From positions 992,001 to 1,056,000 of the forward strand of contig JAWMAR010000165.1 of NCBI GenBank assembly GCA_036785375.1: 64,000 nt of DNA. The letters are read 5' to 3'. The number at the start of each line of letters is the position of its first letter. Position 1 is the stretch's first letter. The notes beneath the pieces are model-generated. The model saw only the letters and a program-made list of their open reading frames with translations. It made no database searches and was not told the origin of the DNA. This document shows positions 1 to 63,067 of this stretch, in pieces. The stretch comes from Leucoraja ocellata (lineage: Eukaryota). The position numbers and the translations under genes were made by a program.

Positions 1-204
1 CTCATTCAGGATATGATGGCGTTCACAACAGTATTGTTCTTGAGTGTCAGTTCAGAGAGGCGGCTCCAGAGTCGACAGTGAGATTAAACCCAGGGCGGTC
101 GGATGCAGTGGCGAGGACAAGGCCAAGCTGAACAATGTCAATATTATACACACAAAAAGCTGGAGTAACTCAGTGGGACAGGCAGCATCTCTGGAGGGAA
201 GGGC

Positions 205-540: not shown

Positions 541-635
541 TATAGATAGTAGAGGGACTGGTGATTGCATCCATGTGCTGGGCCAGGCCAGGCCAGGTCA
601 TGTATGTGCTAGGTCCAGGAGAGGTCATACACGCT

Positions 636-930
636 AGAGTGAGGCCACATGCAAACTAGAGGGACAGCACCTCGAATTCTGCTTGGGTAGCTTACAACCC
701 AACAGTATGAACATTGAATTCTCCAATTTTAGGTAACATAACAACCCTCCCCCTTTTTCCCCCACCCCTACCTCTGTTGTTCAGAGACCAAAACAGACTC
801 AAGCATCTCTCCCATGAGGGAACCAATTCCTCCGATCTGCATGATGCAGATTCCTAACCTCCCCTCCCCCCCCCCCCCCACCTCTCACCTGTATCCACCT
901 ATCACTTGCCAGCACCCCTCCCCCCCCCAG
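636..930 (+). mobile_element. Penelope-like element: C-terminal end of GIY-YIG endonuclease ORF plus 3' UTR
   Basis: 638-736 translates SEATCKLEGQHLEFCLGSLQPNSMNIEFSNFR*, matching the KLEEQHLIFRLGSLQPxGMNIEF end typical of vertebrate PLE ORFs; followed by C-rich UTR with CTCACCTGTATCCACCTATCACTTGCCAGC. Confidence 0.7.
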
Positions 931-2130: not shown

Positions 2131-3104
2131 CCAAATACATTGTACACATCTTTTCTTTAAACACAATGAAAGTATCATGCCTTTCTGAGAAGAGGGAAGC
2201 AAAGTATTTGTCCAGGAGCACACACCCCCTCCACTCATTGCATTCCGTTATCTAAAAGGCCACTCACTTTTCTTGCTCCGTCCGCTCCTATTCTTGCTTA
2301 CATATTTTTTATAAGGTCATAGGTGATAGGAGCAGAATTAGGCCATTCAGCCCATCAAGTCTACTGCGCCATTCCATCATGGCTGATCTATCTCTCCCTC
2401 TGAACCCCTTTCCCCTGCCTTCTCTCCATAACCCTTGATTTGTATTTTTGTGATGCTACTGCCCAACATTTCTAATTTCCTTTATACCCTCTGCCAGCAT
2501 AAACGGAAAGGCAAAAGTGGGTTTGAAAGGAAGAGCAACAGCAAAAAGAAGAGGAATCAAGGGAGAGGGTGTGGGGTGACAGAGAGGAATGGGTGATAGT
2601 TGAGAGGATAAGACGGGAGTGGGAGACGGAGGAAGGAGAGATGGGGAAAAGAGAATCCATTATGGGCACAGAGTTTACGATGCAGAAAGATGAACTGTTC
2701 CTATAGATAATGTGGGCTGATGGGCCTGTTCTTGCTCTATACTCTCATCTATGTTCTAAATGAGGACAAGGATTTAATGGAGACAAAAGGAACTGCAGAT
2801 GCTGGCATCTTGAGCAAAACACAAAGTGCTGGAGCAACTCAGCGGACCAGGCAGCATCTGCGGCGGGAATGGGCAGCCAACATTTCGGGTCAGACATTTC
2901 TGGGAACGCTTGTGCTTGGGTGCTGAGAAAATGTAATCATTGAGAAAATCATCTCTGAATATCCAACCCTCTTACCCTTGTATCCACCTATCATTTGCCA
3001 GGCCTTGCCCCACGCCCACCTCTCTTTACCAGCTTTCTCCCCCCTAATGCAAACAATCTGGAAGGGCCCCGACCCAAAACGTTGCCAGTCCGTTCCCTCC
3101 ATAG

Positions 3105-4596
3105 ATAACCATATAACCATATAACAATTACAGCACGGAAACAGGCCATCTCGGCCCTACAAGTCCGTGCCGAACAACTTTTTTCCCCTTAGTCCCACCT
3201 GCCTGCACTCATACCTACCATAACCCTCCATTCCCTTCTCATCCATATGCCTATCCAATTTATTTTTAAATGATACCAACGAACCTGCCTCCACCACTTC
3301 CACTGGAAGCTCTTTCCACACCGCTACCACTCTCTGAGTAAAGAAGTTCCCCCTCATGTTACCCCTAAACTTCTGTCCCTTAATTCTGAAGTCATGTCCT
3401 CTTGTTTGAATCTTCCCTATTCTCAAAGGGAAAAGCTTGTCCACATCAACTCTGTCTATCCCTCTCATCATTTTAAAGACCTCTATCAAGTCCCCCCTTA
3501 ACCTTCTGCGCTCCAGAGAATAAAGACCTAACCTATTCAACCTATCTCTGTAACTTAGTTGTTGAAACCCAGGCAACATTCTAGTAAATCTCCTCTGTAC
3601 TCTCTCTATTTTGTTGACATCCTTCCTATAATTGGGCGACCAAAATTGTACACCAGATTTGGTCTCACCAATACCTTGTATAATTTTAACATTACATCCC
3701 AGCTTCTATACTCAATGCTCTGATTTATAAAGGCTAGCATACCAAAAGCTTTCTTTACCACCCTATCTATATGAGATTCCACCTTCAAGGAACTATGCAC
3801 GGTTATTCCCAGATCCCTCTGTTCAACTGTATTCTTCAATGCCCTACCATTTACCATGTACGTCCTATTTTGATTTGTCCTGCCAAGGTGTAGCACCTCA
3901 CATTTATCAGCATTAAACTCCATCTGCCATCTTTCAGCCCATTTTTCCAAATGGCCTAAATCACTCTGTAGACTTTGGAAATCCTCTTCATTATCCACAA
4001 CACCCCCTATCTTGGTATCATCTGCATACTTACTAATCCAATTTACCACACCTTCATCCAGATCATTGATGTACATGACAAACAACAAAGGACCCAACAC
4101 AGATCCCCGAGGCACCCCACTAGTCACCTGCCTCCAACCCGATGAACAGCCATCCACCATTACCATCTGGCTTCTCCCATTCAGCCACTGTTAAATCCAT
4201 CTTGCTATTCCTGCATTTATACCTAACAGTTGAACCTTCTTAACCAACCTTCCATGAGGAACCTTGTCAAAGGCCTTACTAAAGTCCATATAGACAACAT
4301 CCACTGCTTTACCCTCGTCAATTTCCCTAGTAACCTCTTCAAAAAATTCAAGAAGATTAGTCAAACATGACCTTCCAGGCACAAATCCATGTTGACTGTT
4401 CCTAATCAGACCCTGTTTGTCCAGATGCTTATATATATTATCTCTAAGTATCTTTTCCATTAATTTGCCCACCACTGAAGTCAAACTAACAGGTCTATAA
4501 TTGCTAGGTTTACTCTTAGAACCCTTTTTAAACAATGGAACAACATGCGCAGTACGCCAATCCTCGGGGACTATTCCCGTTTCTAATGACATTTGA
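3105..4596 (-). mobile_element. Young 5'-truncated CR1 LINE (ORF2 reverse transcriptase region) with (ATGGTTAT)n tail
   Basis: ORFs 4191-4658, 3606-4166, 3157-3579 give PEDWRTAHVVPLFKKG..NYRPVSLTS..DFSKAFDKVPH..GVPRGSVLGP..YADD..LERRRLRGDLIEVFK; one stop at 4191 and a frameshift near 3650; 8-bp tandem tail at 3105-3128; interrupts a Penelope-type terminal element. Confidence 0.95.
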
Positions 4597-5149
4597 CCCT
4601 GACCCGCTGAGTTACTGCAGCATTTTGTGTTTACCTCTGGATATGAACTAATTTGCAATCAATAAATAACTATCTCTAAAAACTAAAATTGAATACTAGC
4701 CTACTTATTTACCATAGTTCACTGAGGCAGCAGCATTTAAACAGTGGTAAATGCAGTATTGAAATGAAGTCTCTCTGATTTAAAGCAGAATTATAATGTT
4801 GGTGTCAATGGGAAATGATGCTCAAACTGAGCTCCTATTTACTCAGCCAATAATGTTCTTTTGTTCTGTTTTTCTAATTGGAACAGTCGGTCTTTGGGAT
4901 TGAAGGAAGAATTGTATAAGGAACAGAATGCCTATGATTTAATTGGCTGTGACTTTATGAACAGTTTGATAACCCGTGAGTATGAGTGATTTATCACTGT
5001 GTTTTTAATGAACATCTGCAGCTTGGACTGGGCACAATGGAAGAAGAGAGAAATGGGATGAGTTAACCCAGGCACCAAACAACAGAACAGGAGAGGATGT
5101 GTGGAGGTGTGCACCGGGGTCAACAAGACCGATGAACAGGGACACAGGG

Positions 5150-6705: not shown

Positions 6706-7150
6706 AAATTTGCTCTTGAAGTAAAAATTCTGCACTTTGTGTCTTCACCTTTGCTAGACTTATTGCACTTGAGCTCGATTTGATTGTATTTATGTATTAT
6801 ACTATCTGATTTGATGAGATAAGATGCAAAACAAAACTATTCATTGCACTGTACACACGCCAATAATAAATGTATACCTCAACCATCAGTACCACCCCCC
6901 CCAATACACGTATCATGAACTTAAACTTAAACTTCACCCAATGGATATCGGGGACATGGATGGCAAAGGGAAGTGCCTTCAATCGCACTAAATGCCACTG
7001 TTTCCCAGCTGAATTACAAGGGATACCGTCCATTTCAGGCTGGGGAACAGGCAGCTCTCGTCTCTCTTGTACCCTCACAATGACCAATGAAAGGTTGTTG
7101 CCATGTTGCAGGCTAACCTGCCCCATTTCAAACACAAACGCAGATGGTGA

Positions 7151-7374
7151 AGATAGACACAAAAAACTGGAGTAACTCAGCGGCTCAAACAGCATCGCTG
7201 GAGAAATGGAATAACTGACATTTCAGGTCGAGACCCTTCATCAGAATGAAGAAGGGTCTCAACCCAAAACGTCACCTATTCCTTTTCCCCAGAGATGCAA
7301 TCTGACCCGCTGAGTTACTCCAGCTTTTTCTGTCTACCTTCGGTTTAATTCAGCATGTGCGGTTCCTTCCTGCA
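7151..7374. mobile_element. Asymmetric hairpin element (Penelope-terminus derived) with back-to-back hammerhead-like cores
   Basis: Arms 7151-7244 and 7247-7339 are imperfect reverse complements; 10-bp TSD CAGATGGTGA at 7141-7150 and 7375-7384. Confidence 0.8.
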
Positions 7375-7402
7375 CAGATGGTGAGGAGCAGGTGGGCCGT
7401 AC

Positions 7403-7888: not shown

Positions 7889-8090
7889 GTGGACAAATGT
7901 GATGGTGAAACTCAGCGGGTGAGGCAGCATCTATGGAGTGAAGGAATAGGTGAAGTTTCTGTTTGAGACCCTTCTTCAGCCTGAAAGGTCGCCTATTTCT
8001 TCGCTCCATAGAGGCCGCCTCACCCGCTGAGTTTCTCCAGCGTTTTTGTCAACCTTTGATTTTTCCAGCATCTGCAGTTCTTTCTTAAAG
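7889..8090. mobile_element. Asymmetric hairpin element, CTTAAA-end subfamily
   Basis: Inverted arms AACTCAGCGGGTGAGGCAGCATCTATGGAG / CTCCATAGAGGCCGCCTCACCCGCTGAGTT; 12-bp TSD AAATAATCAAAT at 7877-7888 and 8091-8102. Confidence 0.75.
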
Positions 8091-8837
8091 AAATAATCAA
8101 ATAATACGTTCAGGAGTGCATCATCTGGTCCCTCGAGCATGCGACACCATTCGGCAAGCTGTTCATCTAGAACACAAAGTGCTGGAATAACTTAGCGGGT
8201 CAGACTGCATCTCTGGAGGACATGGATAGGTGGCTTTTCGGATCGGGACCCTTCTTCACCCCCTCTGAGTTACTCCAGCACTTGTCGTTCCATGCAAGAT
8301 TCCAACTATCTACAGTACCTTGTGGTCAAAGCAGTGCATCTACTTTAGCTCCATTCACTTGCACCGACCCTAATTCCCATGAATCCCCTCACATCTGGAA
8401 AACTATTTACCTCAGAGAACGCCTGAGGCACCAGAGTACAGGAGTGCGATGATTCACCGCCCTCCGCAAGAGATTTCTGCTTATCCCAGTGCTTAGTGGC
8501 TGGCCCTTCATTCTGAGACTGAGCCTCTGCTACCAGAGTCATTGTCCAGGACAATCGACCTCCCCTCATCAAGAATATTGGGTCAACTATTCTTCTCCCA
8601 TTCACCTACAGTGACTTGCAAAAGTTTTCATACCCCTTGAACTTTTCCACATTTTGTCACGTTACAACCACAAACGTAAATGTATTTTATTGGGATTTTA
8701 TGTGATAGACCAACACAAAGTGGTGCATAATTGTGAAGTGGAAGGAAAATGATACATGGTTTTCAATTTTTTTTACAAATAAAAAACTGAAAAGTGGGGC
8801 GTGCAAAAGTATTCAGCCCCCCTGAGTCAATACTTTG

Positions 8838-9362
8838 GAAATACTTTCCTGGTGAACTTCTACCGCTGCACCATCGAGAGCATCCTTACCAACTGCATCA
8901 AAGTATGGTATGGCAACTGCTCTGTCTCCGACCGGAAGGCATTGCAGAGGGTGGTGAAAATTGCCCAACACATCACCGGTTCCTCGCTCCCCTCCATTGA
9001 GTCTGTCCAAAGAAAGCGCTGTCTGCGGAGGGCGCTCAGCATCGCCAAGGACTGCTCTCACCCCAACCATGGACTGTTTACCCTCCTACCATCCGGGAGG
9101 CGCTACAGGTCTCTCCGTTGCCGAACCAGCAGGTCGAGGAACAGCTTCTTTCCGGCGGCTGTCACTCTACTCAACAACGTACCTCGGTGACTGCCAATCA
9201 ACACCCCCCCCCCCCCCCCCCCCCCGGACACTTATTATTATTTATTCAAATCGTTTGCTATGTCGCTCTTCCAGGGAGATGCTAAATGCATTTCGTTGTC
9301 TCTGTACTGTACACTGACAATGACAATTAAAATTGAATCTGAATCTGAATTTGAATCTGAAT
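8838..9362 (+). mobile_element. Young 5'-truncated Rex1/Babar-type LINE nested in the Tc1
   Basis: Uninterrupted FYRCTIESILTNCIKVWYGNC..LLPSGRRYRSLRCRTSRSRNSFFPAAVTLLN; (GAATCT)n tail 9335-9362; CTTTG repeated at 8833-8837 and 9363-9367. Confidence 0.9.
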
Positions 9363-10373
9363 CTTTGTAGAACCACATTTCGCTGCAATTACAGCTGCAA
9401 GTCTTTTGGGGTATGTCTCTACCAGCTTTGCACATCTAGAGACTGAAATTTTTGCCCATTCTTCTTTGCAAAATAGCTCAAGCTCAGTCAGATTGGATGG
9501 AGAGCGTCTGTGAACAGCAATTTTCAAGTCTTGTCAGAGATTCTCAATTGGATTTCGGTCTGGACTTAGGGCCATTCTAACACATGAATATGCTTTGATC
9601 TAAACCATTCCATTGTAGCCCTGGCTGTATGTTCAGGATCATTGTCCTGCTGGAAGGTGAACCTCCGCCCCAGTCTCAAGTATTTTGCAGACTCTAACAG
9701 GTTTTCTTCCAAGATTGCCCTGTATTTGGCTCCATCCATCTTCCCATCAACTCTGACCAGCTTCCCTGTCCCTGCTGCAGAAAAGCATCCCCACAGCATG
9801 ATGCTGCCACCACCATGTTTCACAGTGGGGATGGTGTGTTCAGAGTGATGTGCAGTGTTAGTTTTCCGCCACACATAGCGTTTTGCATTTAGGCCAAAAA
9901 CGTCAATTTTGGTCTCATCTGACCAGAGCACCTTCCTCCACATGTTTGCTGTGTCCCCCACATGGCTTGTGGCAAACTGCAAACGGGACTTCTTATGGGT
10001 TTTTTTCCAACAATGGCTTTCTTCTTGCCACTCTTCCATAAAGGCCCGATTTGTGGAGTGCACGACTAATAGTTGTCCTGTCGATAGATTCTCCCACCTG
10101 AGCTGTGGATCTCTGCAGCTCCTCCAGAGTTACCATGGGCCTCTTGGCTGCTTCTCTGATCAATGCTCTCCTTGCCCGGCCTGTCAGTTTAGGTGGACGG
10201 CCATGTCTTGGTAGGTTTGCAGTTGTGCCATACTCTTTCCATTTTCGGATGATGGATTGAACAGTGCTCCGTGAGATGTTCAAAGCTTGGGATATTTTTT
10301 TATAACCTAACCCTGCTTTAAACTTCTCCACAACTTTATCCCTGACCTGTCTGGTGTGTTCCTTGGGCTTCAT
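9363..10373 (-). pseudogene. Disrupted Tc1 transposase
   Basis: MKPKEH..HTH..GRPPK; [33 protein letters not shown] motifs; frameshift in T run ~10000-10007, small deletion/stop ~9566, TGA at 9534-9536, last codons displaced by a LINE. Confidence 0.95.
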
Positions 10374-14851: not shown

Positions 14852-15743
14852 CACTTTAACGACCATGTTGTTTTCACAGAGGCAAATCTTTGGGAGCTGA
14901 GAGGGAACCAGAGCAACTGGAGAAAACCCACATAGTCACAGGGAGGACAGGCAAACTCCACGCAGACAGTTCCCAAGGTCAGGATTAAATGGGTCTCTGT
15001 GAGGCAACAGCTCTGTCCGCTGTGCCACTGTGCTGCCCTGATTTGGTTCCGTCAAGGTCCTATAATCTGAAATGATGTTATAAACAGGAGCGCAGATGCT
15101 GGTTTATATTAAAGATAGACACAAAATGCTGGAGTAACTCAGCAGGTCAGCATTTCGGAAGAAAAAGAGAAAATGGAGAAAATGTGTGAAGAAGGGTCCC
15201 GACCCGAAATGTCACCTATCCATTTTCTCCAGAGATACTGTCTGGCCCGTTGAGTTACTCCAGCACTTTGTGTCCATCTCTGTGACGTAAACTTCCATCC
15301 CTCAGGAAATAAATTCCAAAGATGTGGGGGGGTTTTAAATGCCTTATTAAACTCCAGTATCGATAATGATTGCGTATGATCTATATTTCAAGATCCCTCA
15401 CCACACAACAACAGTGTTAAAGGAGCTTCTTGTGCTTCCTACCAAAGTGCACCATTTCACAATTCTCTATGTTGTAATTCTATTGCTAATTGCTCTGTTT
15501 ATTTGTGTCTGGCACGTTGTCACAGCTCAGCTCTGCATTAACCACACGTTTCATTGGAAGAGTTCCTCAGAATACCATCTTCACCCCAACTATCTTCATC
15601 TGCTACGTTAATTATCTTTTTTTCATAATGAAGTCGAAAGTGGCAATTATTTGTTGCTGATTGCACAGAAATATCTTATTCAATCTAAAGAGTCAATCAC
15701 TCTCTCCAATTTGTTTTGAAACTAATGTCCAAGGATCACCTTA

Positions 15744-15967
15744 AGGGCCTGTCCTATTTTCATGACCTAACACGACCTCTGCTGAGTTTACCCTTGACTC
15801 GTACTCGCAGCATGGTCGTCACGAGGTCGCAGGAGGTCATAGCAGGCCGTGATGCTAGCCGTAGGTACTCGTGGCATCAAGTAGGTCGGGGCGTTTCTCT
15901 AGCATGATGAAAAATGGCCAAGAGTAAAAAAGGTCGTGGATTAGGTTGTGAAAGTGGGACAGGCCCT
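15744..15967. mobile_element. MITE, PIF/Harbinger-type
   Basis: TIRs AGGGCCTGTCC / GGACAGGCCCT; TTA on both sides (15741-15743, 15968-15970); no ORF. Confidence 0.85.
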
Positions 15968-16059
15968 TTACTTCACATCAACTATTTCATTCTTTTATTT
16001 TGTTTGTTTCTACTTCATTCCATTAATCCGTATTTTTAAATTCCATGCCTCAAGAGCCG

Positions 16060-16512: not shown

Positions 16513-16549
16513 AATACACACTTGGGGCGATTTTACAGAGGCCAATTAA

Positions 16550-16765
16550 AGGGCCTGTCCCACTTTCACAACCTCTGCCGAGTTTGCCCTTGACTCGTAC
16601 TCCCAGCATGGTCGTCACGAGGTCGTAGGAGGTCGTAGGTAGCTTGTGATGCTAGTCGTATGTATTCATGGCATCAAGTAGGTCGGGGCATTTTTTCTAG
16701 CCTGATGAAAAATGTCCACAAGTAAAAAGGGTTGTGAATTAGGTCGTGAAAGTGGGACATGCCCT
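16550..16765. mobile_element. MITE, same subfamily as 15744-15967
   Basis: AGGGCCTGTCCCACTTTCAC / GTGAAAGTGGGACATGCCCT; flanks TAA and TAG; interior nearly identical to 15744 copy. Confidence 0.85.
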
Positions 16766-16799
16766 TAGCCCACTTTTTATTCTCCCCACATTCCCATCA

Positions 16800-18533: not shown

Positions 18534-18739
18534 CCTAATCAGCCCTGGTGAAGCTCAATGTAGCCCCGAGTCACACCATCCAACACTTCAGGAGTCACCA
18601 AGGACTTTGGATAATAATCCCGCTTTCGTTCTTTACTCTCCTCCTCAATTCTTCCATAGAGGCAGGGAATCAGAGAATCACAGAGCTATACAGCATGGAA
18701 AGTGGCCCTTCGGCCCACCTGGTCCATGCCGATCTAGTT

Positions 18740-19030: not shown

Positions 19031-19519
19031 TCTATTCATGATACTCGACAGTCCCACTATCACTGACAGTCTTTTCATAGGTTGCAGTTTAGATTCGGTT
19101 CATTGACACATTCACCCTGAAGCCATTGCCATGCTTTTACAGTGAAGTCATTCACTCAGTCTTCCCAGCCACGTCCTGCCCGATGCAGGAACGAGAGCAC
19201 TGACTGGTTTAGGTGCTGAGTAACGTTAGGGCTGCTGGGCACAAGTACAAAGGAGCAGGAGGTAATCTTCCAAAATCAGGCACCTTTGCAGAGGTGAAGG
19301 GACGAGAGAAAGCTCTTCCCTCGAGTTATCACTACACCTCTTCGCCCAAACACTGGAGACAAAAGCTTGGCCTTGTGTAGCAGCAACAGCAGCTCAAAGA
19401 GCCAGCACTGGGTAGGAATTCAAAGCCTGCAGATTCAAGCCAGCTGATGCCAACTGCCATTAAAGGGCAAAGAAGGATCAGTAAAAATAAGCGTGGCGTC
19501 AGACCCTGTTGTGAATGGA

Positions 19520-20080
19520 GACACAAGAAACTGCAGGTGCTGGAATTTCGAGTTAAACCCAAAGTGCTGGAGGAACTCAGCGGGTCAGGCAGCATCTGTG
19601 GAGGGAATGGACGGGCGACGTTTTGGGTCGGGACCCTTCTGCAGACTGACTGTGGCAAGGGAGAAAAAGCTGGAAAAGAGAGGTGGGAGCGGGGCAAAGC
19701 CTGGCCAACCATATGTAGGATGGAACTGCAGATGCCGGTTTAAACCAAAGATAGACACAAAAAGCTGGAGCAACTCGGCGGGACAGGCATCATGTCTGGA
19801 GAGAAGGAACGGGTGACGTCTCGGGTCGAGGCTCTTCTTCAAACGTCAGTCTCGACCCGGCTGGAGGTAAAAAGGAGACAAAAGGATGCCAGATCAGGAG
19901 AGGAGATGTGAGATGTGAAACCAGAGGGAGGGAAGTGGATGAGGTGATAAGTGGATAAGGAAGTAGATAAGAGACGAGGAGTGAAATGTAAAGCTGGAGG
20001 GAGGGGGAGGGATGCAGGTGGAAGGGGACAGGGATTGGGGAAAAGGACCAGGATAGTGGGAAGATTGGGTGCGCACCTGT
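19520..20080 (-). mobile_element. Penelope 3' UTR/terminal fragment with a nested second terminal element (~19713-19855)
   Basis: Reverse complement of the C-rich UTR plus hammerhead-like motif seen at 22325-22510 and 61840-62235. Confidence 0.6.
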
Positions 20081-20500: not shown

Positions 20501-20649
20501 TTTTTTTTTTTTCCAAAAAATTTATTCAATTATTAAAAAATAATATTTACACTACAATAAAACAAGCCAGAACCCACCACCATAAATACAATACAAACAT
20601 ATATCCATAATAAACTATTATACAATTATGATACAATCCTTATTGAGGA
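20501..20649 (-). mobile_element. 5'-truncated poly(A)-tailed L1/Tx1-like 3' end
   Basis: Poly(T) at 20499-20512, reverse-strand AATAAA just upstream of the tail; 15-bp TSD TACAATATGCTCCTT at 20486-20500 and 20650-20664. Confidence 0.85.
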
Positions 20650-20664
20650 TACAATATGCTCCTT

Positions 20665-21900: not shown

Positions 21901-21904
21901 CATA

Positions 21905-22324: not shown

Positions 22325-22510
22325 TGCCAACAACCCCCCCCTCACCTGTATCCACCTATCACTTGCCAGCCTTCGCCCCGCCTCCTCTCTTCCAGCTTTC
22401 ACCCCCCCTCCTAAAGTCAGTCTGAAGAACGGGCCCGACCCGAAATGTCACCTGTCCATTCCCTCCACAGATGCTGCCTGACCCACAGAATTCCCCCAGT
22501 ATTTTGTGTG
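22325..22510 (+). mobile_element. Penelope 3' terminal region with hammerhead-like motif
   Basis: CTCACCTGTATCCACCTATCACTTGCCAGC (identical to 883-912) followed by CTGAAGA..GGG..CCC-GAAAT-GTC at 22422-22449. Confidence 0.7.
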
Positions 22511-26759: not shown

Positions 26760-27704
26760 TAGACAATAGACAATAGGTGCAGGAGTAGGCCATTCGGCCC
26801 CTCGAGCCAGCACATCATGGCTGATCATCCACAATCAGTACCTAGTTCCTGCCTTATCCCCATATCCCCTGACTCCGCTATCTTTAAGAGCCCTATCTAG
26901 CTCTCTCTTGAAAGTATCCAGAGTTCCGGCAGAGAATTCCACAGACTCACAACTCTGTGAAACAGCGTTTCCTCATCTCCATTCTAAATGGCTTAAACTG
27001 TGGCCCCTTATTCTTAAACTGTGGCCCCTGGTTCTGGACTCCCCCAACATCGGGAGCATGTTTCCTGCCTCTAGCATGTCCAAACCCTTAATAATCTTGT
27101 ATGTTTCAATAGGATTCCCTCTCATCCTAAGTTCCAGAGTATACAAGCCCAGCCGTTCCTTTCTCTCAGCGTACGACAGTCCCGCCATCCCGGGAATTAA
27201 ACTTGCGAACCTACGCTGCAATCCCTCAATAGCAAGAATGTCCTTCCTCAAATTTGGAGACCAAAACTGCACACAGTACTCCATATGTGGTCTCACTAGG
27301 GCCTCATACAACTGCAGAAGGACCTCTTTGTTCTTATACTCAACTCCTCTTGTTATGAAGGCCAACATGCCATTCGCTTTCTTCACTGCCAGCTGTACCT
27401 GCATGCTTACTTTCATTGACTGATGAACAAGGACCACCAGATCCCGTTGTTTAAGAAGGAACTGCAGATGTTGGAAAATCGAAGGTAGACAAAAATGCTG
27501 GAGAAACTCAGCAGGTGAGGCAGTATCTATGGAGCGAAGGTATGGCTCCATAGATGCTGCCTCACCCGCCGAGGCAGATCCGTTGTACTTCCCCATTTCC
27601 TAACTTGACACCATTTAGATAATAATCTGGCTTCCGGTTTTTGATACCAAAGTGGATAACCTCACATTTATCTACATTAAACTGCATCTGCCCACTCACC
27701 CAAC
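26760..27704 (-). mobile_element. CR1 LINE 3' fragment (CTATTGT tail) with nested hairpin element at 27451-27575
   Basis: ORF 26973-27596 AVKKANGMLAFITRGVEYK..LVRPHMEYCVQFWSP; nested element flanked by AGATCCCGTTGT / AGATCCGTTGT. Confidence 0.9.
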
Positions 27705-27717: not shown

Positions 27718-27942
27718 CAAAATGCTGGAGTAACTCAGCAGTACAGGCAGCATCTCCGGATAGGAATGGGTGATGTTTCGGTTCAATACCCTTTTTCAGA
27801 CTTCAGCAGTCAGAAGAAGGATCTGGACTCAAAACTTCACCCATTCCTTCCATCCATAGATGCTACCTGTCCTGCTGAGTTACTCCAGCATTTTGTGTCT
27901 ATCTTCAGTTTAAACCAGCATCTGCAGTTCCTTCCTACACAG
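27718..27942. mobile_element. Asymmetric hairpin element
   Basis: Inverted arms; 13-bp TSD CTTAGATGGGACA at 27705-27717 and 27943-27955. Confidence 0.8.
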
Positions 27943-29880: not shown

Positions 29881-30795
29881 TATATGTAGTTTACATGGAA
29901 GATAGACACAAAATGCTGGAGCAACTCAGCTGCTGCACCCGCTGAGTTTCTCCAGCATTTTTCATTTTCCAGTATCTGCAGTTCCTTCTTAAACACTGTA
30001 CTTCTCTACATTCCTTCTCCCTTCTCTATATTCCTTCTCTCCAGAGATGCTGCCTGTCCCAGCATTTTGTGTCCATCTTTGGTAAACCAGCATCTGCAGT
30101 TTATGTTGTTCTCTAACATCTGGACAGACAACGAGTGACACCCACGGTAACAGTGCTGACTGCGAATCACAGCTTGTAAATTAGGAACTATAGTGAACTA
30201 TTTTCAGTTCAATATTTCAAAGCAGAACCAAGGCAACAAAGAGGCTTGAATTATGCAGCGTATACGTCACGCAGCCTGCAACACGACCTAGCAAGGTCGC
30301 AGGGATGTTCACGTGATCTTACAGCGGGACACTGAAGGCCAAGCAGTTCATCAGCTGCAGCTAAAGCCCGAATATCCTGGCCTGGGACTCGGCAGCTGCT
30401 CGTCCAATTACAAGCGGCGTGACCACCCCGCGGTGCTCCTCCAATCACACGGTGAGGAACCCACGATGTTTGTCCAATCACACAGCGAGGAACCCAGTGC
30501 TCACCCACGGTCCCGACCTGAAACGTCATGTGTGCATTCTCTCCACAGATGCTGCCTGACCCTCTGAGTTACTCCAGCACTTTGTGTCTGTCACCCAACT
30601 ACCTGCTAATGCTTCAAATGGTGGATAAAAACAGCAAACACTGGAGATGCTCAGCCTGGCGGGCAGCATCTGCAGAGGGAGAATCAAAATCAACAATGGG
30701 TTTTCCTCATCCCACTGCTGCATCCTTGCCTGTTGGATATCTCCAGCACTTTGTTTTTCCATAAGACAGCAGGCAGAGGAGAGTGGGGCCTCATG

Positions 30796-34708: not shown

Positions 34709-35051
34709 GTCATTGGGGATTTTTAAAGCGGAGATTGACTAGTAAGGATCTCGACTCTCAAAGGATATGGGCTGAAGGCAGGAGAATGGGATTGAGAGGG
34801 AAAAATACATTGGGCATGATTGAATGGCAGAGCAGACTCAATGGACCAAATGGCCTCATTCTGTTGTCTGGTCATGGTAAATACAAGGTGCTGGAAGAAC
34901 TCAGCGGGTCAATTAACCGGAGTTCCTCCAGCACTTTGTGTTTTGCTCAAGCTTCCAGCGACTGAAGTTCCTTGTGAGTCCTGAAGAACTTTGTGTAGGA
35001 GCACCATGAATCTGCAAACATTTCAATGGATCATGTGAAACGCTACGGTAC

Positions 35052-35789: not shown

Positions 35790-36452
35790 TCTCTCAAATA
35801 TCAGCAAGACAAAGGAGATGGTGATCGACTTCAAGAAGCAAAGCAGTACACTTACACAAAATTGCAGAGAATCGTGAACACAGCTGAGCCCAGACCATCA
35901 CACAAACCAGCCTCCCATCCATTGAGCAAAGGAGATAGGCATGTTTCCCCAAACATTGCCTATTTCCTTCGCTCCATAGATGCTGCCTCACCCGCTGAGT
36001 TTCTCCAGCATTTTTGTCTACCTTCGATTTTCCAGCATCTGCAGTTCCTTCTTAAACAACTCCCATCCATTGACTCCATTTACACCTCACGCTGCCTCGG
36101 CAAGGCCAGCAGCATAATCAAGGACGAGTCGCACCCTGGCCACTCCCTCTAACCCCCTTCTCCCATCGGGCAAAACGTATAGAAGTGTGAAAACACACAC
36201 CTCTAGACTCAGCGACAGTTTCTTCCCAGCTGTTATCAGGCAACTGAACCATCCTACCAACAACTAGATAGCAGTCCTGAGCTACTATCCATCTCATTGG
36301 AGACCCTCGGACTATCTTGGATCGGACTTTACTGGACTATCTTGCAATAAACATTATTCACGTAATTCCCTTGATCATGTATCTGTACACTGTGGATCGC
36401 TTGATTGCAATTGTACATTTCCCTCCTTAGTACACGTAACACAGGCACACTC
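35790..36452 (+). mobile_element. Rex1/Babar-type LINE fragment with nested hairpin element at 35926-36059
   Basis: NISKTKEMVIDF and LPSIDSIYTSRCLGKASSIIKDESHPGHSL; nested element flanked by 14-bp TSD CTCCCATCCATTGA (35912-35925, 36060-36073). Confidence 0.8.
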
Positions 36453-38610: not shown

Positions 38611-39309
38611 TTATGCATCTATAGAACGAAGGAAATAGGCAACGTTTCGGCCCGAAACCCTTCTTCCTATTTCCTTCGCTCCATAGATGCTGCTGCACCC
38701 GCTGAGTTTCTCCAGCATTTTTGTGTACCTTCGATTTTCCAGCATCTGCAGTTCCTTCTCAAACACTATAATAGTCATCGGTCTGCAGTTTTATCTTCAC
38801 ATGGCTTCCTGGAGGCTATAATGAGAGGCGGTGAACAAGCATAATTCAGCATGAAAACATCCATCCCAAATTAGCAGCAAGAACGTTCACCAGTCCACTC
38901 TCGCAGACAGGATTAGCCACTCTGTTACGCCATGACTTCAGCCGCCTTCGCTCTTCATTAACTTTGCCTGACCCTTTCTCTGCAGTGGGTCATTGATATA
39001 CAGTGCCGAGCCCCCACCTCAGTTACATGTAGTGGAAACCTGCAGCTCGGTGACGCTCATTAATATAGCTCGGCCTACGTCCCAGTGATGTTCAGACCTG
39101 CATTCTCCAAAACTGGATCTCAGTAAAACACAGGAATCATCCAGAAAAAGCAAGCCAAGTGCTTGTCCGAACTTCCAAGTAACAGATTTAAACCACCCGG
39201 TAGGCAGTTGGCTGGATTGCTTCACCTCAAGAGCCTTTAACTAATGATACACAGTGATAGACGTGTATCCTCTGAGCCACAACATTGGGTCAGTGCGAGT
39301 CAGTGAAGC

Positions 39310-41650: not shown

Positions 41651-44389
41651 GAGCTGCCTGTGATACACTGTCACGTGTACCAAGGTACAGTGTGAAGCTT
41701 GTGTTGCGTGCCAACCAGTCAGCGGTAAGACAACACAGGATTACAATCGAGCCTTCCGCACCGTACAGGCACAGGATAAAGGGAACTTCATACACACAAG
41801 GGGCAATTTACAGAGGCCAATTAACGGAAAACCCCGCACATCTTTGAGATGTGGAGGAAACCCACGCTGTCACAGGGAGAACGTGCAAACTCCACACAGA
41901 CAGCACCCGAGGTCAGGATGGAACCCGGGTCTCTGGCGCTGTGAGGCAGCGACACAAGCCCCACATTGCTCTGTGCTATTGAGGTGAATGAGCCAGCACC
42001 ACAGCGAGTGAGTGACGGGAAGGAGCAGAGGGAGGTAGTCGGGCAGACATCGCCCTTCTGACTCTAGTGGGATCGGCCAGAACTATCACAACGCTGCATC
42101 AGCTGTCACAGGCGCTGACCTTCAACTATGCTGCTCAGTGCCCTAGACCTTGGCAGCTGCAGCCCGGGCTGGCGATGGGGGAGGGGGTCAGCTCACTGCT
42201 CTGCCTGCCTGCCTCGCCCAAGTATTGACTACCGTATGCACCAGTGTTCACCCCCTAAACCGCCCACAACTCTTTTACTATGCAAGAGTTTGCTACTCAA
42301 AGAGCACGGTGCATATTTAACTCTGCCCACTGCTAATTCTTTCATCCAGCACTTCAGACTTTACTTTAGAGGTACAGCATGGAAACAGGCCCTTCGACCC
42401 AACGAGACTGTGTTAACCAACGATCGCCCACTACCACTATCCTACCCACACTTGGGACAATTTACAATTTTTACCGAAGCCAATTAACCTACAAACCTGT
42501 ACGTCTTCGGAGCGTGGGAGGAAACTGGAGCACCCGGAGGAAACCCACGCGGTCACAGGGAGAACGGACAAACTCCATACGTCTGTGCCCATAGTCAGGA
42601 TGGAACCCAGGTTTCAGGCGCTGTAAGGCAGCAATGTACCACTGCCCAACCGTGCTGCCCCGACATATTCCACTCTCTAGCATTTGCAGAGCTGGGTGTA
42701 TACTGTAGCATGCCATTTGTAACAGGATCCAAGTCTAAATTGACTCATTGCAATGATCTTTGGAAAAGCCGCATTAAGCTTATAACCTATCGAGCGGTGG
42801 GGTTAATGAAATTGTGAGACTCAGCTAGAGGCTAATCACAGCTTAATGACCCCACTTTATGAATCAGCACTCCTCGAGTTGCAAGGAATAACTATCCGAT
42901 GTAAACGGACTCACAAGTCCTGGGAGAAATGGCAACACAGTGCACTTGAACCCATTGGTGGCGGCTGCCATTTGCAAAGCAAAACGCTGCAGATGATGGA
43001 AATCTGAGATATAAACAGAAATATTCAGCAGCTCAGGCAGTACCCGTGGAGAGGGGGGTAGAATTAACAAGCTCCCCGTTCTGATGAAGGGCTGTTGATC
43101 CAAAACTTTCACCCTTCACAGTTGCTGCCCAACCTGCTGAATAGTTTTGGCACTTCCCATATTATTACTGGTCTTATTGAGCATTGTGTTATGCTTTATA
43201 TTAAAGGGGACACCCACAAGATGACGAACGTTACATGCAACAAAATGAGTTTACGAGTCTTCACCAAAAATGACCATGGCATCTGACCCGTGATTTATAC
43301 ACAGAGAGGAACTGGGTAGGTCCCTCCCGGAAGCCGTGGTCCTATTCAGAATCAGAAAGGGCCGAGAAAACACAAGAGACTGCAGGTACTGGAAAACACA
43401 AGGTGCTGGAGGAACTCAATGGGTTAGGTAGTATCAGTTAGATGCTGCCTGACCCACTGAGTTTACTTTAGAGATACAGCGCGTAAACAGACCCTTTGGC
43501 CACCGAGTCCACACCGACCAGCGATCACCTCTTAGACCAGCACTATCCTACACAGTGGGGATAATTTACAATTTACAGAAGCCAATAAACATACAAACCT
43601 GTATGCGTGAGGAGTGTGGGAGGAAACTGGAGCACCCAGGGAAAACCTACGTAGTCACAGGGAGAATGTACAAACTCTGTACAGACAGCAATCATAGAAA
43701 CTGGGTCCCTGGCTCTGCAAGAGCGTGCCACTGTGATGCCGTGCTCCAGCACGTTGTGTTCTTTCCTAATTACAATCCCTGGCTATGATCCATTTCTCAC
43801 AGTGGTTTAGTTTAAAGATACATCTTTGGAACAGGCCCTTAGGCCCACCAAGTCCATGCCAACCATCGATCACCTGTTCACATTAGTTCTATGTTATCCC
43901 TCTTAGTCATCCACTCCCTGCACACCAGAGGCAATTTCACACAGGCCAATTAACTTACAAATCCGCACGTCTTTGGGATGTCGGGAGGAAACCTCAACAA
44001 TGAGAACATGTGGCAATGAGAACATACAAACTCCACACAGACAGCACACGAGGATCAGGATCAAACCCGGGTCTCTGGTGCCATAAGGCATCAGCTCAAT
44101 CAGCTGCTCCACTATGGTTTATGGCAACATTTCCCAGCTTTCAAAACCAACAACTCTTTGCTTCCATGTAGTGTCCTCAACTAAACAAAATAACATCAGG
44201 CACTTGATTGGGACTATTCTCTGACAGATATTTCACCAAATCATGGAAGATTCAGGGCGGAGATTGGCCAAAGATTGGTTTAGGCTTCATCCTAAAGAGG
44301 CCGATGGATTTATACAGAGTTTTGGATTCTTGCAGCCAATAGAAACAACTTTAGGCCCTTCCAATGTAACAAACCACCCGCACAGACTG

Positions 44390-52800: not shown

Positions 52801-53879
52801 CCAAACAAGGAGTAAGATGGAAGTAAAATTGGGAAGCCTGCAAGTTGAAGGATTTTGTAGATGAGAGGGGAGAGGGTAAGTCAGGAGAATCACATTTTAT
52901 TGACCATGTAGCATTCTAAGTCCTTGGAGACATGAGGAACTGCAGATGCTGAATTCCTGAACGAGATACAAAGTGCGGGAGGAACTCAGCGGGTTAGGCA
53001 GCATCCGTGGATGGAATTGATGGATGACATTTCGGATCAGGACTGGAGAAAAGCCCCAACCCGAGACGTCACCAGTCTGAGACCCAAAATGTTGCCTGTC
53101 CATTCCCTCCACAGTTGCTGCCTGACCTGCTGAGTTCCACTGGCACGTTGTGTTTTTTGTTCATAAGTCTCTATTTCACTCTGCCTGCTGAGCACTTGAT
53201 TGAAAGTTACCAAGTCAGGTCTTTTGTTCCCAAGGCTTGTCCAAAGCCAGATGTGTCAAACAGGAGCAAGACCAAGCACTGACTTGACCCCAGCCTCCCC
53301 ACCTGTAACAAGGACCACTGGGCATCAACAGCTGCCACAGAGAGGGGATTCAGCACACAACTGCAGCCATTCTGTGTAGGAAAGATCTGCAGATGCTGGT
53401 TTACACCGAAGACTCGAAATACTGGAGTAACTCTGCAGGTCAGGCAACATCCTTGTAGAAAAAGAATAGGTGATGTTTCAGGTCAAACCTTTCATCAAAC
53501 TGTGTCTCATCCAAAACCTTGCCTATTCCATTTCTCCAGAGATGCTGCCTGACCCGCTGAGATACTCCAGTCTATCTGCAGTCCTTCAGTGCCCTTTAAC
53601 CACCCATGGATGAAGATAGTGGCACGTGAAAAGCGAATGACAACATGTAATGAACCAAGTTGCAAGGACAAGGTGGGGAATTAAAGTGTGTGTGGGGAGC
53701 CCCAGGGCAAGGGTTAAAGTGGAGAGGCAGGTGATGCTATCAGCAGAACAGGAAAGGGCTATCATCAGCAGTGACTCAATCATCATCATAGCTTCAGGAG
53801 AATAAACTCACCCCTGAGTCAGAGTGCCGTACCTCAGCAGGTGCCGCACTTCAGGAGAAACCATACACCCAGACAAAAC

Positions 53880-54170
53880 ACAATGGCAGAGCTCCTGCCT
53901 CACGTGCCTGAGACCCAGGTTCATTCCTGACCTTGGGTGCTGTCTGTGTGGAGTTTGCACGTTCTCCCTGTGATTACATGGGTTTCCTCCGGGTGCTCCA
54001 TTTCCTCACTTTTCTCAAAGACGTGCAGGTTTCAAGGTTAATTGGCCTCTGTAACTTGTCCCTCATGTGTAAGGAGTGAATGAGAAAATGGGATAACACA
54101 GAGCTAGTGTGAACAGGTGATTGATGGTCAGCTAGGTGGGCCGAAGGGCCTGTTTTCATCTATAAACTGA
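53880..54170 (+). mobile_element. tRNA-derived SINE
   Basis: Degenerate B box GGTTCATTCC, conserved body and GGGCCGAAGGGCCTGTTT tail. Confidence 0.75.
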
Positions 54171-54954
54171 ACTCAGTGTTAGGCAGCAGGGAATGGACAG
54201 ACAACATTTTAGGTCAAGAACCACCTTCAGGCTGATTGTACACCTTACTCCTCCCTACTCCAATCAGTCTGAAGATGGGTCCTGCCCGAAACATCACCTG
54301 TCCATGTCCTCCAGAGATGTGGTCCTGACCCGCTGAGTTACTCCAGCACTGTGGATTTTGCTCGAGCATCTGCAGTTCCTTGTGGCTCCATTAAATCCAG
54401 GTCCGGTCAAACCACTGATAAAACATTTCAGGGCCGAACCCCAGAGACGGACGGGGAGTTGGTTTCTGTGTCTCGACCCCCATTGCCAGCAGATACCTGG
54501 TGACAACCATGCTGCTGGTTCTGGGACCTAGTGTACAGGTTAGTGTCTCGAATTCCAACATCACAACTATACTTCAAAAACACTGCATTGGCGGGAAAGG
54601 CTCACAACCTTGTTGAGATCGCGAGGTCAAAGTGATAGATCAAAAAACCAACAACAACTCAGCACTAACACAGCTGAATCAATCCTGAGGTCCTTGCCTC
54701 TGTGGATTCCAACCACATAGTTCGCTGCAGTCAGTCCCCACCAGATGTGGTGCAGATGTTAGGCCTCACTCAGAACAGCCGAACGAACATCTGTGGATGG
54801 TCAATGACCTTCAGTTCACATTGAGCGACAAACATGGACTCACACCTCTGTTCACACAGTACGTGCTAGACCAGGCCTACACGGGCTTGTTCTACATCGC
54901 TGTCCCACACCGCACCCCACAATAACAGCAGGCTTTATGCTACACACAATTCTG

Positions 54955-57340: not shown

Positions 57341-58947
57341 CCCGACACTAGAGGAAAGTGAATCTCTGAAATCCCTGAACTTTCCATTGTCTCCTCTGCT
57401 GCGGAACCACGTTCACTCCACACACACACACGGCCCCGCACCTGCTGCTGCTGCAGTGGAAACATGTATGGGAATGAAACTGAACCAAGCGGGGACCATG
57501 TCAGCGTGTTGCACCCCACCACACACACACACACACGCACAAGCAACTGCAGATGCTGGAATCTTGGGCAAAACACAAAGTGCTGGAGGAACTCAGCGGA
57601 TCAGGCAGCATCTGTGGAGGGAATGGACAGGCGATATCCCGGGTCTGGGCCCTTATTATTCACACAATTCAATGTTCACTAAATATAATGAGTTATTTAT
57701 GTTCAATAGTTTCACTGCACGTTTTCAGAAAGGGACACAGAGATACGATACAATATGTACTGATAAGCTGTGCACAGTGCGACACAGCTCGGAGTGGGGG
57801 GGGAAACACCATTAAATCTGCATTAGATAGAAATTGAAATAAAACAGAAAACGTTGACAACCACGATCAAAGAAAGATTGCAGGTCCGAAATCTTGAGCA
57901 AAACACGAAGTGCTGGAGTAACTGAGCGGGTCGGGCAGCATCTGTGGAGGGGAATGAGCAGGCGACGTTTCAGGTCCGGGCGCTTCTTCAGACTGTGTAG
58001 AAAGGAACTGCAGGTGCTGGTTTATACCGAAGATAGACAAAGTGCTGGAGTAACAGTGGGTCGGGCAGCATCTTTGGAGAACATGTTCCTCCAGCGACGT
58101 TTCGGGTCGGGAAGAAGGAAGAAGTCGGCCATCCTTCTTGTCCAGAGATGCTGCCTGACCCGCTGAGTTACTCCAGCACTTTGTGTCCATCCGATATATA
58201 GAATTTCCACAAATCTGTCGATTTTTTTGTTCCCCGCCGGCATTTTATCATTATCACAGCTCAGAGTATTACAGGGTGAGGCGGATTGCCTGTGTAAATA
58301 ATGGTGAGTAACAGTGTTGGCGGATCGTGCTTGAGATACAGAGTGACTATCAAATCAATGAATTGCCCTGATTACGTGCATATCAAACGGCGCAGCCAGC
58401 AATAAAAACAGAACATGTCATTAACAGTTAGCCGGGCGGGCAGCATCCGTGGAGAACGAGAAATAGAATTAGCTTTTCTGGGCTGTGACCTTTCATTAGT
58501 GGGTGAGACAGGCACTTGTGATCCCACATCAAGGCATCCGTTCCTCCACAGATGCTGGAATAGTGTGAAGATGGGTCTCCACGTGGTCTGTCCATTCCCT
58601 CCACAGTTGCTGCCTGGCTCACAGAGTTCCTCCAGCACATTGTCTGTTGCTCAGGATTGCAGCATCTGCAGTTCCTCGTGTCGCCAGGTCAAAGCTCGGT
58701 TGTCCTTCCATGACCATCTGAGATAGATGGTTGATGGTTGGGCGGTGAACAATAAGGGAAGGAACTCAAACATCTCCAGTCAGTAGGGGTGGTGGATAAT
58801 TCATCTCATCCTCCTGATGCCCCCACCCGCACACAGGGTAGCTATGGGAGTGTTGGATGCAGCAAAGGGTCAGGAGCCTTGGCAACGTCGCACTGTGGTT
58901 CTGAAGGGGTGAGGTTTAGAACAACCCTACACCTACATTCACCAGAG

Positions 58948-60662: not shown

Positions 60663-60850
60663 GAGAAAAGAAATAGGTGACATTTCAGGTCAAGATCCTT
60701 CATCTGATGAAGGGTCAGATGTCTGATGAAGGGTCTTGACCCAAAACGTCACCCGTTCCTTTTCTCCAGAGTTTCTGCCCTACCCGCCAAGTTATTCCAC
60801 GACTTGTATCTATCGACGGTGTAAACCAACATCTGCAGTTCCGTTTTACA
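60663..60850. mobile_element. Asymmetric hairpin element
   Basis: 15-bp TSD CTCTTTACAACCTTA at 60648-60662 and 60851-60865; core CTGATGA-A-GGGTC-TT-GACCC-AAAAC-GTC at 60723-60750. Confidence 0.8.
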
Positions 60851-62877
60851 CTCTTTACAACCTTAATCCAAGCATGGATACAGGTCTGAATTTCAGAAAT
60901 GGAAGTCGTAGAGTCATAAGAAGGGTCTCGACCCAAAACAGCACTTATTCTTTTTCTGCAGAAATGCTGCCTGACCCGCTGAGTTCTTCCAGCAATTTGT
61001 GTCTATCTTCGGTGTAAAACAGCATCTGCAGTTTCTTCCTACTCATTGAGTCAATGATCAGGGAGACAGGCCCTTCGGCCCAATTTGCCCATGCCAACCA
61101 CAAATGGCCCATCAATCCCAGTACCTCCTCCCCGTTTGGCCCATATCCCTCTAAACCGATGAATTGTTGTCCTTGACATCATTTGACCAATGGCAACATG
61201 AAGACATCCTTGTAAATTTGATTCAATGGAAATCCTTAACAATTCAATGTGTTAGTTGGTTAATTGCCCTCTATAAATAGTCCCTAATGTGTAGGGAGTG
61301 GATGGGAATGCGGGATAACATAGAACTAGTGTGACTGGGTGATCGATGGACAGCTTAGACTCAGTGAGCTGGCAAGGGTTGTTTGGGACTTATGATCTCA
61401 GTCCCAAAGCATCAATTACAGGAGTTCTTCAGGGCACTGTTTTGGGCCAATATATCTTCAACATTGAATTACATTTTGTGATTTTTACATTAAACAATTT
61501 CTCATTCAACTTGACTTATTTGCACCCAATCAAAGGAATAGCCGTGGGAATGTACATGCTCTATCCCTAGAACAGTCCTTACTACAAATCCCACTCAGCT
61601 CCCCCCCCCCCCCCCATCACCCGAGGTCAGGATCAAGCCTCGGTCCCTGGCACCATGAGCTCTGCCAGCTACCCCACAGTGCTGCCCTGGTACTTTCCGT
61701 GATGTTCACTCTGTTTCTGCCTCCACAACTTTCTATCTGATCGGCTGATTAGTTAGCACTTTCTCTCTTTATTCTTTCCATGCCACTCAGGTTCGACCCA
61801 TTATGTTTCCTAATCGTCCATATCAATCTGATTCAATCCCACCCCCACCTCCTACAATCAGTCACTCCAACTAACCTCCCCCTGCCTCTTTCTCTTTTCT
61901 CCCCCACATCCCTCTCTCTTCCCCCCTTTCCTCCCCTGGACCCCACCCTGGACTCCCACCTATTTCTCCCCTCCACCACCCACCCCCCCCCCCCCCAATC
62001 TGCTACTTTCCTCCCCTGGCTTCACAATCCTCAACTCTCCATACCTGTCTCACACCTACTGTTCTTATCTCTGGCCTTTGTTCTAACCATCTACCTATCA
62101 AAACCCCGCTTCTCCTGTGTCAACCTATTACCTGCCATGCTTTGTCCTGTCTTGCCTCTCCGCTTTTCCAGCCCCTCGCCCCCCCCCCCCCCAACCCCCC
62201 CCCCTCCCCCCGCCTCCACTCCCCTACCTTCAGTCTCTTTGTTTCCATATACCAAGATTCAAGAGAGTTTATTGTCTTGTGTCCCAGCTATGACAATGAA
62301 ATTCTTGCAAGACATAATGTTCCAGACTAGTGTGACACAACTGCGCTGCACACTCTTGTGGATCTCTGTGAAATACAGTGCCATATATCGCGATCTCACC
62401 CACCAATGTTGGTATAGCTCTATTTAATATATCGCAGTCTGTGCCAATAGGCAGCAAGACCTGGACAATAGTGCAGCTGAACTGATAAGAAATCATAACT
62501 GAAAAATAGCCCCAGATTTTGTGTTTATCATCGGTATAAACCAGCACCTGCAGTTCCTTCCTGCACAGAAATCTTTAACGTTTGGCCCTATGACTCCAGT
62601 AAGAGAGAGCCTGCCCACCAATTCCCTGTCATCACCTAATTCCCCACCAGTTATACGTTCAGGGCCATCATTGATCAGTAATTTAACTGAACCAGTCACA
62701 CAGAGCAGATCAAAGGCTGTGTCTCCTCGAGGGGGGGGATTCACTACTTACTCCAACAGCTTTCCATCATCCACAAGGCACATGTCAGGAGTGTGCTGAA
62801 ATAGAGGACTAATTCTTGTCTAGAGGAATTAGTCCTCTATAACATTCAAGAGAGTATAAACATGTTGACTGGTACCT

Positions 62878-63067
62878 AAGATAGACACAAAATGCTGGAG
62901 TAGCTCAGCGGGACAGGCAGCATCTCTGGAGAGAAGGAATTGGTGACGTTTCAGGTCGGGTCTCAACCCATTCCTTCTCTCCAGAGATGCTGCCTGTCCC
63001 GCTGAGTTACTCCAGCATCTGTGTCTATCTTCAGTTTAAACCTGCATCTGCAGTTCCATCCTACACA
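62878..63067. mobile_element. Asymmetric hairpin element with collapsed centre
   Basis: Near-perfect inverted arms; TG(A/T)CTGGTACCT duplicated at ~62866-62877 and ~63071-63082. Confidence 0.75.

Follow-up and report, generated by a model that had tools for sequence, protein, structure and literature searches.

The short inverted-repeat units scattered over the window (the whole 64-kb stretch of DNA analysed) were interpreted as pseudo-LTR (pLTR) cores of subfamilies of EN+ Penelope-like elements (PLEs) of a skate or ray, probably of the Neptune type, each hairpin having been formed anew at insertion; the probability of this interpretation was put at about two in three. An earlier note on this DNA had related the units to PLEs and to target-primed retro-insertion, in agreement with the long and variable target-site duplications (TSDs), the asymmetric ends and the minimal hammerhead consensus found here. 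Its own alternative, short or abortive PLE insertions, fitted better, as the junctions differ, the arms form no clades of their own and the same arms occur in 5'-truncated copies. The pLTR core is made up of the hammerhead, about 90 nt and a tail of about 36 nt. A PLE origin is indicated by the inverted pLTRs, the one-sided tail and the TSDs, which are published PLE hallmarks: in Adineta, inverted pLTRs were described that have TSDs of 8-10 bp and a 31-bp tail at a single end (PMC3846280), and inverted pLTRs with TSDs are given as general PLE features (PMC8557442; PMC8969392). The hallmarks present in the window included the inverted and partial-tandem arrangement, 5' truncation and a tandem junction at 57994.

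Hairpins, target-site duplications and arm ends

Seventeen head-to-head pairs and 24 solo units were defined by hand from a table of locally aligned arms (Table 1). The arms gave 56 nhmmer matches, or 60 matches by local alignment compared with none in a reversed-window control, and took up 8.2 % of the window (5229 bases), at a density of about one arm per kb; the window is repeat-rich, with 40 % self-matching sequence. Arm positions were numbered from the C of the CTGA box (position 1). About five subfamilies (A1, A2, B, C and D), with three tail types, were distinguished among both the arms and the pairs. Besides the endings CTACAC and TTAAAC, described before as the usual ones, there is a third tail type, ending ..TTCCTTGTGTCTCC.

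Table 1. Positions of the focal hairpin and its parts, of the other head-to-head pairs and of copies with UTR sequence in the window
Feature	Position	Strand
Left TSD copy of focal element, 10 bp	7141..7150	+
Short tail-less inverted arm, subfamily A2, about 0..+96	7151..7245	-
Minimal type I hammerhead core, boxes intact; predicted stem II pairing 0 in full hairpin	7217..7244	-
Second hammerhead core, both conserved boxes mutated	7246..7273	+
Long arm (+2..+130) of probable PLE pLTR core	7247..7374	+
Tail of about 35 nt, long arm only	7341..7374	+
Right TSD copy of focal element	7375..7384	+
Hairpin B/B, 12-bp TSD; short arm further 5' than long arm	7889..8090	+
Hairpin D/C, 14-bp TSD with 2 mismatches	8171..8328	+
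Hairpin of a long A2 and a short D arm (discordant), no clear TSD	15086..15280	-
Hairpin B/B within CR1-like fragment, 12/11-bp TSD	27451..27575	-
Hairpin A1/A1, 13-bp TSD, axis at CTGA box	27718..27942	+
Chimeric head-to-head pair, A1 and B arms, 7-bp flanking repeat	29889..29995	+
Hairpin C/C, no TSD found	34879..34976	+
Hairpin B/B, 14-bp TSD, very short inverted arm	35926..36059	+
Hairpin B/B; short arm has +3..29, absent from long arm	38615..38765	+
Degenerate hairpin, no TSD found	43370..43463	-
Hairpin C/C with extra internal piece	52926..53156	-
Hairpin A2/A2, 12-bp TSD with 2 mismatches	53373..53575	-
Hairpin, long arm starting about 27 nt inside 3' UTR	54169..54389	+
Hairpin (57994-58191), tail joined directly to C arm starting at -2; partial tandem	57879..58191	-
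Hairpin A2/A2, 15-bp TSD, axis at CTGA box, small internal duplication	60663..60850	+
Hairpin A1/A1, 13-15-bp TSD, arms 5 % apart	62878..63067	+
Putative PLE ORF end (638-736, 32 codons and stop), then shared 3' UTR motif (878-913)	633..930	+
5'-truncated copy: 3' UTR, hammerhead and arm to +88, tail-less	22335..22509	+
5'-truncated C copy, UTR pieces 19645-19712 and 19856-20080; A1 arm between (19712-19844)	19517..20080	-
3' UTR, hammerhead and arm, interrupted at +51	2967..3106	+
Pyrimidine-rich UTR-like stretch up to CAGTCT site; BLAST similarity to other UTR pieces weak	61850..62232	+

All seven hairpins listed in the earlier note were present where it had placed them, and the five TSDs that it quoted were exact (10, 12, 13, 14 and 15 bp). 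The TSD length of 10-15 bp that it gave for every unit was exact in these five, but hairpins 27451-27575 (12/11 bp, with a 1-nt indel) and 62878-63067 (13-15 bp, with mismatches) carry small changes. By eye, a TSD of 10-15 bp was recognised in nine of the 17 hairpins when up to two changes were allowed in the core match. A TSD score of at least 8 was reached by six of the 17, whereas 246 mismatched pairs of flanks reached it in 2.4 % of cases (binomial p 2e-6) and the 24 solo copies in none (Fisher p 0.003), the latter comparison being confounded by subfamily age, as the solo copies are mostly of the older C subfamily and their age may contribute to the missing TSDs. The TSDs bracket the whole hairpin, vary between 10 and 15 bp and enclose a unit with asymmetric ends; a fixed short TSD with symmetric termini, as in a true MITE, was looked for, and the view that the units are no such elements was upheld. 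The focal hairpin had a folding energy of -106 kcal/mol (z -13), which was matched by none of 200 shuffles. Among 23 neighbouring arm pairs no more than 70 bp apart, 16 were head-to-head and two tail-to-tail.

The 3' ends of the arms were bimodal (n = 61). Twenty-six lay at +124..130, including the tail of about 36 nt, and 18 of the 32 tail-less ends (before +112) lay within +84..96 (p 5e-7 compared with a uniform distribution). In 16 of the 17 hairpins exactly one arm carried a tail; the exception was the A1/B chimera at 29889, the A1 arm of which may carry a deleted tail. In this chimera (29889-30101) a second A1 arm lies 7 bp after the A1/B pair, with a small tandem duplication. The description of the inverted copy as variably truncated was accurate for seven of the 17 hairpins, with ends at +44..78, but not for the other ten, which ended at +84..101. 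Solo arms ended at +88..96 in eight of 26 cases, including the UTR-bearing copy 22335-22509.

The 5' ends were at -2..+3 in 25 of 61 arms, three of which run on upstream while 22 stop there, and at +28..33, near the predicted hammerhead cleavage site, in five. Twenty-nine arms reached the CTGA box, and four of these continued into a mutually similar, pyrimidine-rich 3' UTR, the reference UTRs being of the C/D type and A and B UTRs being absent from the window. An ATG at +50 was in frame with the tail in 12 of 18 arms having a spacing of 53-57 nt (54 or 57 in the in-frame cases), three further arms having larger deletions; in some PLEs the first codons are held in the pLTR and tail (PMC3846280). 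A pyrimidine run ending in YAG was also seen at +36..49, just before this ATG, in C and B copies.

Several other features were observed around the hairpins. A probable host gene on the minus strand has its first coding exon at 56624-56597, with an ATG and a GTAAGT donor in a GC-rich region, and an acidic, lysine-rich exon at 7597-7403 (minus strand), about 49 kb downstream; the focal hairpin would sit 18 bp from the donor of this putative exon. A Tc1/Sleeping Beauty-like transposon at 8596-10758 has 226-bp inverted repeats (93 %), another repeat fragment inside and a broken transposase at 9569-10385 (minus strand), and the 3' part of a CR1-type LINE at 3157-4658 (minus strand) has RVT_1 in two pieces. 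The hairpins can usefully be contrasted with true MITE-like elements at 15743-15968, 16549-16766, 35056-35335 and 59586-59897, the termini of which are symmetric and flanked by TTAA-like sequence. Another long imperfect palindrome, unlike the hairpins, lies at 45733-45999; with 80-nt arms at 93 % and inner arms of 58 nt, it is probably derived from a DNA transposon. The window also contained two inverted copies of a 1-kb repeat (17495-18534 and 33668-34707; 92 % identity, no Pfam match) and a minisatellite at 30796-31389 with 14 copies of a 41-bp unit and an 82-bp higher order.

Hammerhead cores and the search for a PLE coding region

The consensus of 24 arm cores fitted the published minimal type I hammerhead consensus of metazoan PLEs, CUGANGAH-G..C-GAAA-CG-UH (PMC4209133). 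For the fuller copies, the earlier note had placed a core on each strand and the symmetry axis at the CTGANGA box. Cores on opposite strands were indeed present, but only two of the 24 examined had kept all boxes, one being the minus-strand core of 7151, and no hairpin of the 17 had two intact cores. Both arms reached the box in four of the 17 (7151, 27718, 54169 and 60663) but not in the other 13, and at least one arm reached it in nine. A transcript of either hairpin strand contains one sense core. According to predicted folding, the stem II pairing probability in 7151 falls from 0.46-0.75 in the isolated arms to 0 in the full hairpin. Covariation in the hammerhead was not significant (33-140 of 500 shuffles). 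Rfam gave no match over the whole window at gathering scores and two chance matches in an E-value search of 19400-23000. Minimal hammerheads require dimers and cleave poorly (PMC4209133). The hammerheads of the hairpins would not be expected to cleave, and the hairpins would be dead-on-arrival DNA.

A link of the arms to a PLE ORF is weakly supported. The shared UTR motif also occurs 3' of a stop-terminated ORF end at 638-736, which may be the C-terminus of a GIY-YIG domain of the Neptune type. The database protein P0002 holds, off-frame, a homologue of 636-767 followed by the UTR and an A1 arm. Among the 236 window ORFs of at least 75 aa, Pfam detected a CR1-type RT, a Tc1 transposase and two sub-threshold matches, and neither a GIY-YIG domain nor a PLE RT. 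No homologue of the 638-736 peptide was named by a word search, Pfam, Atlas or NCBIfam, and PDB gave one chance match; its off-frame relatives had six and four matches, none of them named, and Atlas scored only about 0.8 on P0026. A frame-shift test for a 12-residue motif pattern was not significant. A second test used the CX2-5CxxC linker pattern published for the Neptune clade and was marginal (p about 0.04-0.07): for two near-identical proteins (off-frame P0022 and P0026), 40-69 of 1000 shuffles matched, and two of 20 other protein-frame tests matched as well. The search with arm peptides returned 19 matches, consisting of unnamed ORFs and of repeat-derived gene models, some of them from Leucoraja erinacea and Narcine bancroftii, which point to a batoid fish as the source of the window; no PLE domain and no ORF beginning with the peptide was among them. 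The peptide motif was matched nowhere in the text searched of the papers and of the PMC8557442 supplement. A prokaryotic genome collection, scanned for contamination, gave no match and then nine chance matches without similarity beyond the pattern.

Insertion mechanism and alternative explanations

In the proposed mechanism a PLE RT-GIY-YIG protein would cut both target strands 10-15 nt apart. Copying would begin at an internal RNA site, at +130 for tailed and about +92 for tail-less arms, the anatomy of these ends being observed and the enzymology borrowed from Poseidon of Anolis carolinensis (PAc). Many copies end at -2..+3, and the RNA 5' end would lie there, at the TCAGTCT in the pLTR, which we take from its consensus to be an initiator-like motif, the start site being placed from the motif by itself. 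On this view the arms would not have been truncated at random but would be 'strong-stop' cDNAs of the 5'-proximal pLTR, and the 22 arms of 61 that stop at this boundary suggest such cDNAs made from a short 5' RNA segment. The RT start sites would be only 92-130 nt from the presumed RNA 5' end. A template jump there would be in keeping with the tail joined straight to an arm at 57994. In Penelope the promoter and start site are inside the pLTR (PMC2377424). The arm 5' boundary could equally be read as a 3' splice site, and in D. virilis helix I is where the intron ends (PMC4209133); unlike what would be expected from splicing, the arm-only copies have no common upstream exon.

Finally, the second target end would receive an inverted tail-less copy and the inner ends would be joined head-to-head, yielding a hairpin inside the TSD. 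Priming at each of the two target ends, for which two RNAs may have served, has about an even chance of being the route and is slightly favoured over fold-back of one cDNA followed by central deletions, which is possible but doubtful. Two-end priming is favoured because short arms carry extra sequence (in six of 17 hairpins the 5' end of the short arm lies beyond that of the long arm by at least 9 nt, the reverse holding in four), because two pairs (29889 and 15086) combine arms of different subfamilies, because ends at +88..96 occur on solo arms, and because the PAc protein, predicted to be a dimer, cuts and extends both strands. Fold-back is favoured by the 7151 junction, the length of which is exactly that of a snap-back at CAG-T-CTG, and by the seven of 17 short arms ending at +44..78, off the second start site; such ends are more readily explained by fold-back or by 5' truncation. 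An earlier study proposed self-priming at palindromes (PMC3846280).

The notion of a hairpin family with shared breakpoints and clades of its own was not borne out in the 64-kb window, where no junction was shared among the 17 and neither short nor long arms formed clades. On a tree of 46 of the 57 arms (those of at least 60 nt) the short arms needed 7 changes compared with a shuffled mean of 8.3 and were therefore not clustered. The partner arm was among the closest 8 % in eight of the 17 hairpins; pooled category means of the distances were inflated by the misaligned short arm of 35926 (0.63, an artefact) and were set aside. The same kinds of arm also occurred as ordinary 5'-truncated copies with a 3' UTR. 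Since all 17 junctions differ and the short arms form no clade, the hairpins were, judged by their sequences, probably built anew at each insertion. Unique junctions are no proof of independent origin, because palindromes lose their centres over time, and on such loss depends the unlikely alternative of a non-autonomous family, in which the hairpin loci, or loci with an arm only, would themselves give rise to transcripts that the PLE protein copies: the modal inverted end (+92) would be the 5' end of a master, the shorter inverted arms would be 5' truncations, as seven of 17 are in line with, and later deletion at the palindrome centre would account for the variety of junctions. The very high density with few UTR-bearing copies (four of the 29 arms reaching the box), the putative initiator and RT start sites that the arm itself would carry and the sufficiency of PLE pLTRs for mobilisation in trans (PMC3846280) agree with such a master, as do two weak short-short pairs on the tree, 7149+53504 (96/20) and 15184+58132 (82/59), neither of them starred and accompanied by one long-long pair. 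It is opposed by the absence of a junction common to any two of the 17 hairpins, by the occurrence of hairpins in all subfamilies with arms mostly of the partner's subfamily, and by the ends at +88..96 on solo and UTR-bearing copies; moreover, a near-perfect RNA hairpin of 200 nt would bury the hammerhead stem and probably the protein-binding site. Somewhat unlikely, too, is that the batoid pLTR core of about 130 nt, from the initiator at -2 to the RT start sites, is a self-sufficient, PLE-mobilised SINE-like unit, and that a PLE dimer routinely primes both cut ends on two short RNAs. If so, ORF-less hairpin retro-insertions, some chimeric between subfamilies and some re-amplified as masters, would make up several percent of the genome; reverse transcription would have produced a mimic of MITEs, and PLE insertion would have left an extensive record in nature.

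New formation from PLE pLTR cores was also weighed against origins outside PLE retrotransposition. A DNA-transposon MITE, or hairpins arising by post-insertion DNA repair or by chance insertion of solo arms next to each other, would explain the inverted-repeat shape, and the arm density is high enough for neighbours, one pair (29889) being chimeric. Such origins are very improbable and are largely refuted by TSDs spanning both arms, variable at 10-15 bp around units with asymmetric ends, by the different look of the symmetric TTAA-type MITEs of the window and by the excess of head-to-head over tail-to-tail neighbours (16 and two of 23 within 70 bp). DIRS-type inverted repeats, for which no TSD is expected, were considered and rejected. 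The earlier note had called the family retrozyme-like, in which case the RNA would be processed by hammerheads, and the resulting monomers or circles would be retrotransposed. The hammerhead consensus, the relation of animal retrozymes to PLE pLTRs (bioRxiv 2026.07.22.740005) and the five of 61 arms starting at +28..33 would suit this, but it is barely credible for these units: the cores lie on opposite strands, pair with each other in the hairpin and are intact in two of 24 cases, whereas retrozymes need hammerheads in tandem on one strand, and no array of units in tandem on one strand is present in the window, where Tandem Repeats Finder listed none for this family. Most arms span the cleavage site uncut, their 5' ends being piled up at -2..+3 and not at +29. 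The poor, dimer-dependent cleavage of minimal hammerheads (PMC4209133) and the dispensability of cleavage for PAc insertion (PMC11167929) weigh against it as well.

Significance and comparison with known systems

The hairpin architecture is already known, the window most likely presenting a stripped-down and very abundant form of a known PLE insertion pattern and not a new ribozyme element. In a literature search, conducted mostly outside subscription journals, no description of ORF-less hairpins at such density, or of a fixed 5' stop, was found, nor any paper on hairpins of this kind in sharks, skates or rays; consensus sequences of these repeats may already be in Dfam or Repbase. The way in which PLEs come to insert in inverted or tandem form has, according to PMC8557442, yet to be explained. 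If the window is typical, minimal insertions whose ends, junctions and TSDs can still be read abound in a skate-like genome. Counting them would allow a choice among two-end priming, fold-back and a hairpin master, and would be an in vivo test of the two RT start sites known in vitro. Repeat annotators may label the hairpins as MITEs or unknown repeats. Arm sequence also leaks into gene models, as shown by Leucoraja and Narcine proteins with arm-derived peptides; those in the skate gene models P0004, P0008 and P0018 suggest exonisation or mis-annotation.

LINE-1 inversions formed by twin priming copy non-overlapping parts of one RNA, whereas the hairpins copy one segment twice. The two are alike in that the second target end primes cDNA, giving a 5' inversion within the TSD (bioRxiv 2024.12.14.628481). 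With metazoan non-LTR retrozymes the hairpins share being non-coding, hammerhead-bearing, related to PLE pLTRs and dispersed as monomers, but retrozymes are defined by same-strand tandem hammerheads, in head-to-tail repeats giving circular RNAs, whereas here inverted pairs and solo units with decayed cores were found (PMC7229834; bioRxiv 2026.07.22.740005). The minimal hammerheads described for metazoan PLEs are mostly single motifs of truncated elements, and in Schistosoma dual hammerheads lie on opposite strands 100-700 bp apart, whereas those of the hairpins are directly back to back, with a helix I of only 2 bp and a helix II of 4 bp; the supplement text searched held no cartilaginous fish (PMC4209133).

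In PAc, two internal RT start sites bound the tail shortly 3' of the hammerhead, and its protein, predicted to be dimeric, cuts and extends both strands (PMC11167929); the two groups of arm 3' ends match these sites. The PAc ORF starts in stem II, whereas the candidate ATG here is at +50, and the sections covered of that report describe neither hairpin products nor a fixed 5' stop. The closest likeness is to the inverted-pLTR insertions of EN+ PLEs, namely Pen2, Pen2a and Pen3a of Adineta, Penelope of Drosophila virilis and those in Fig. 2 of Craig et al., which likewise have a head-to-head terminal repeat, a tail of 30-40 bp at one end only and a TSD of about 10 bp round the whole unit; in Adineta and D. 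virilis solo insertions without a TSD and partial tandems also occur, as they do here. Unlike in those insertions, the repeat stands alone in the window, as ORF-less units of 95-230 bp at about one arm per kb, with somewhat longer TSDs (10-15 compared with 8-10 bp), and is sharply bounded at the hammerhead on its 5' side.
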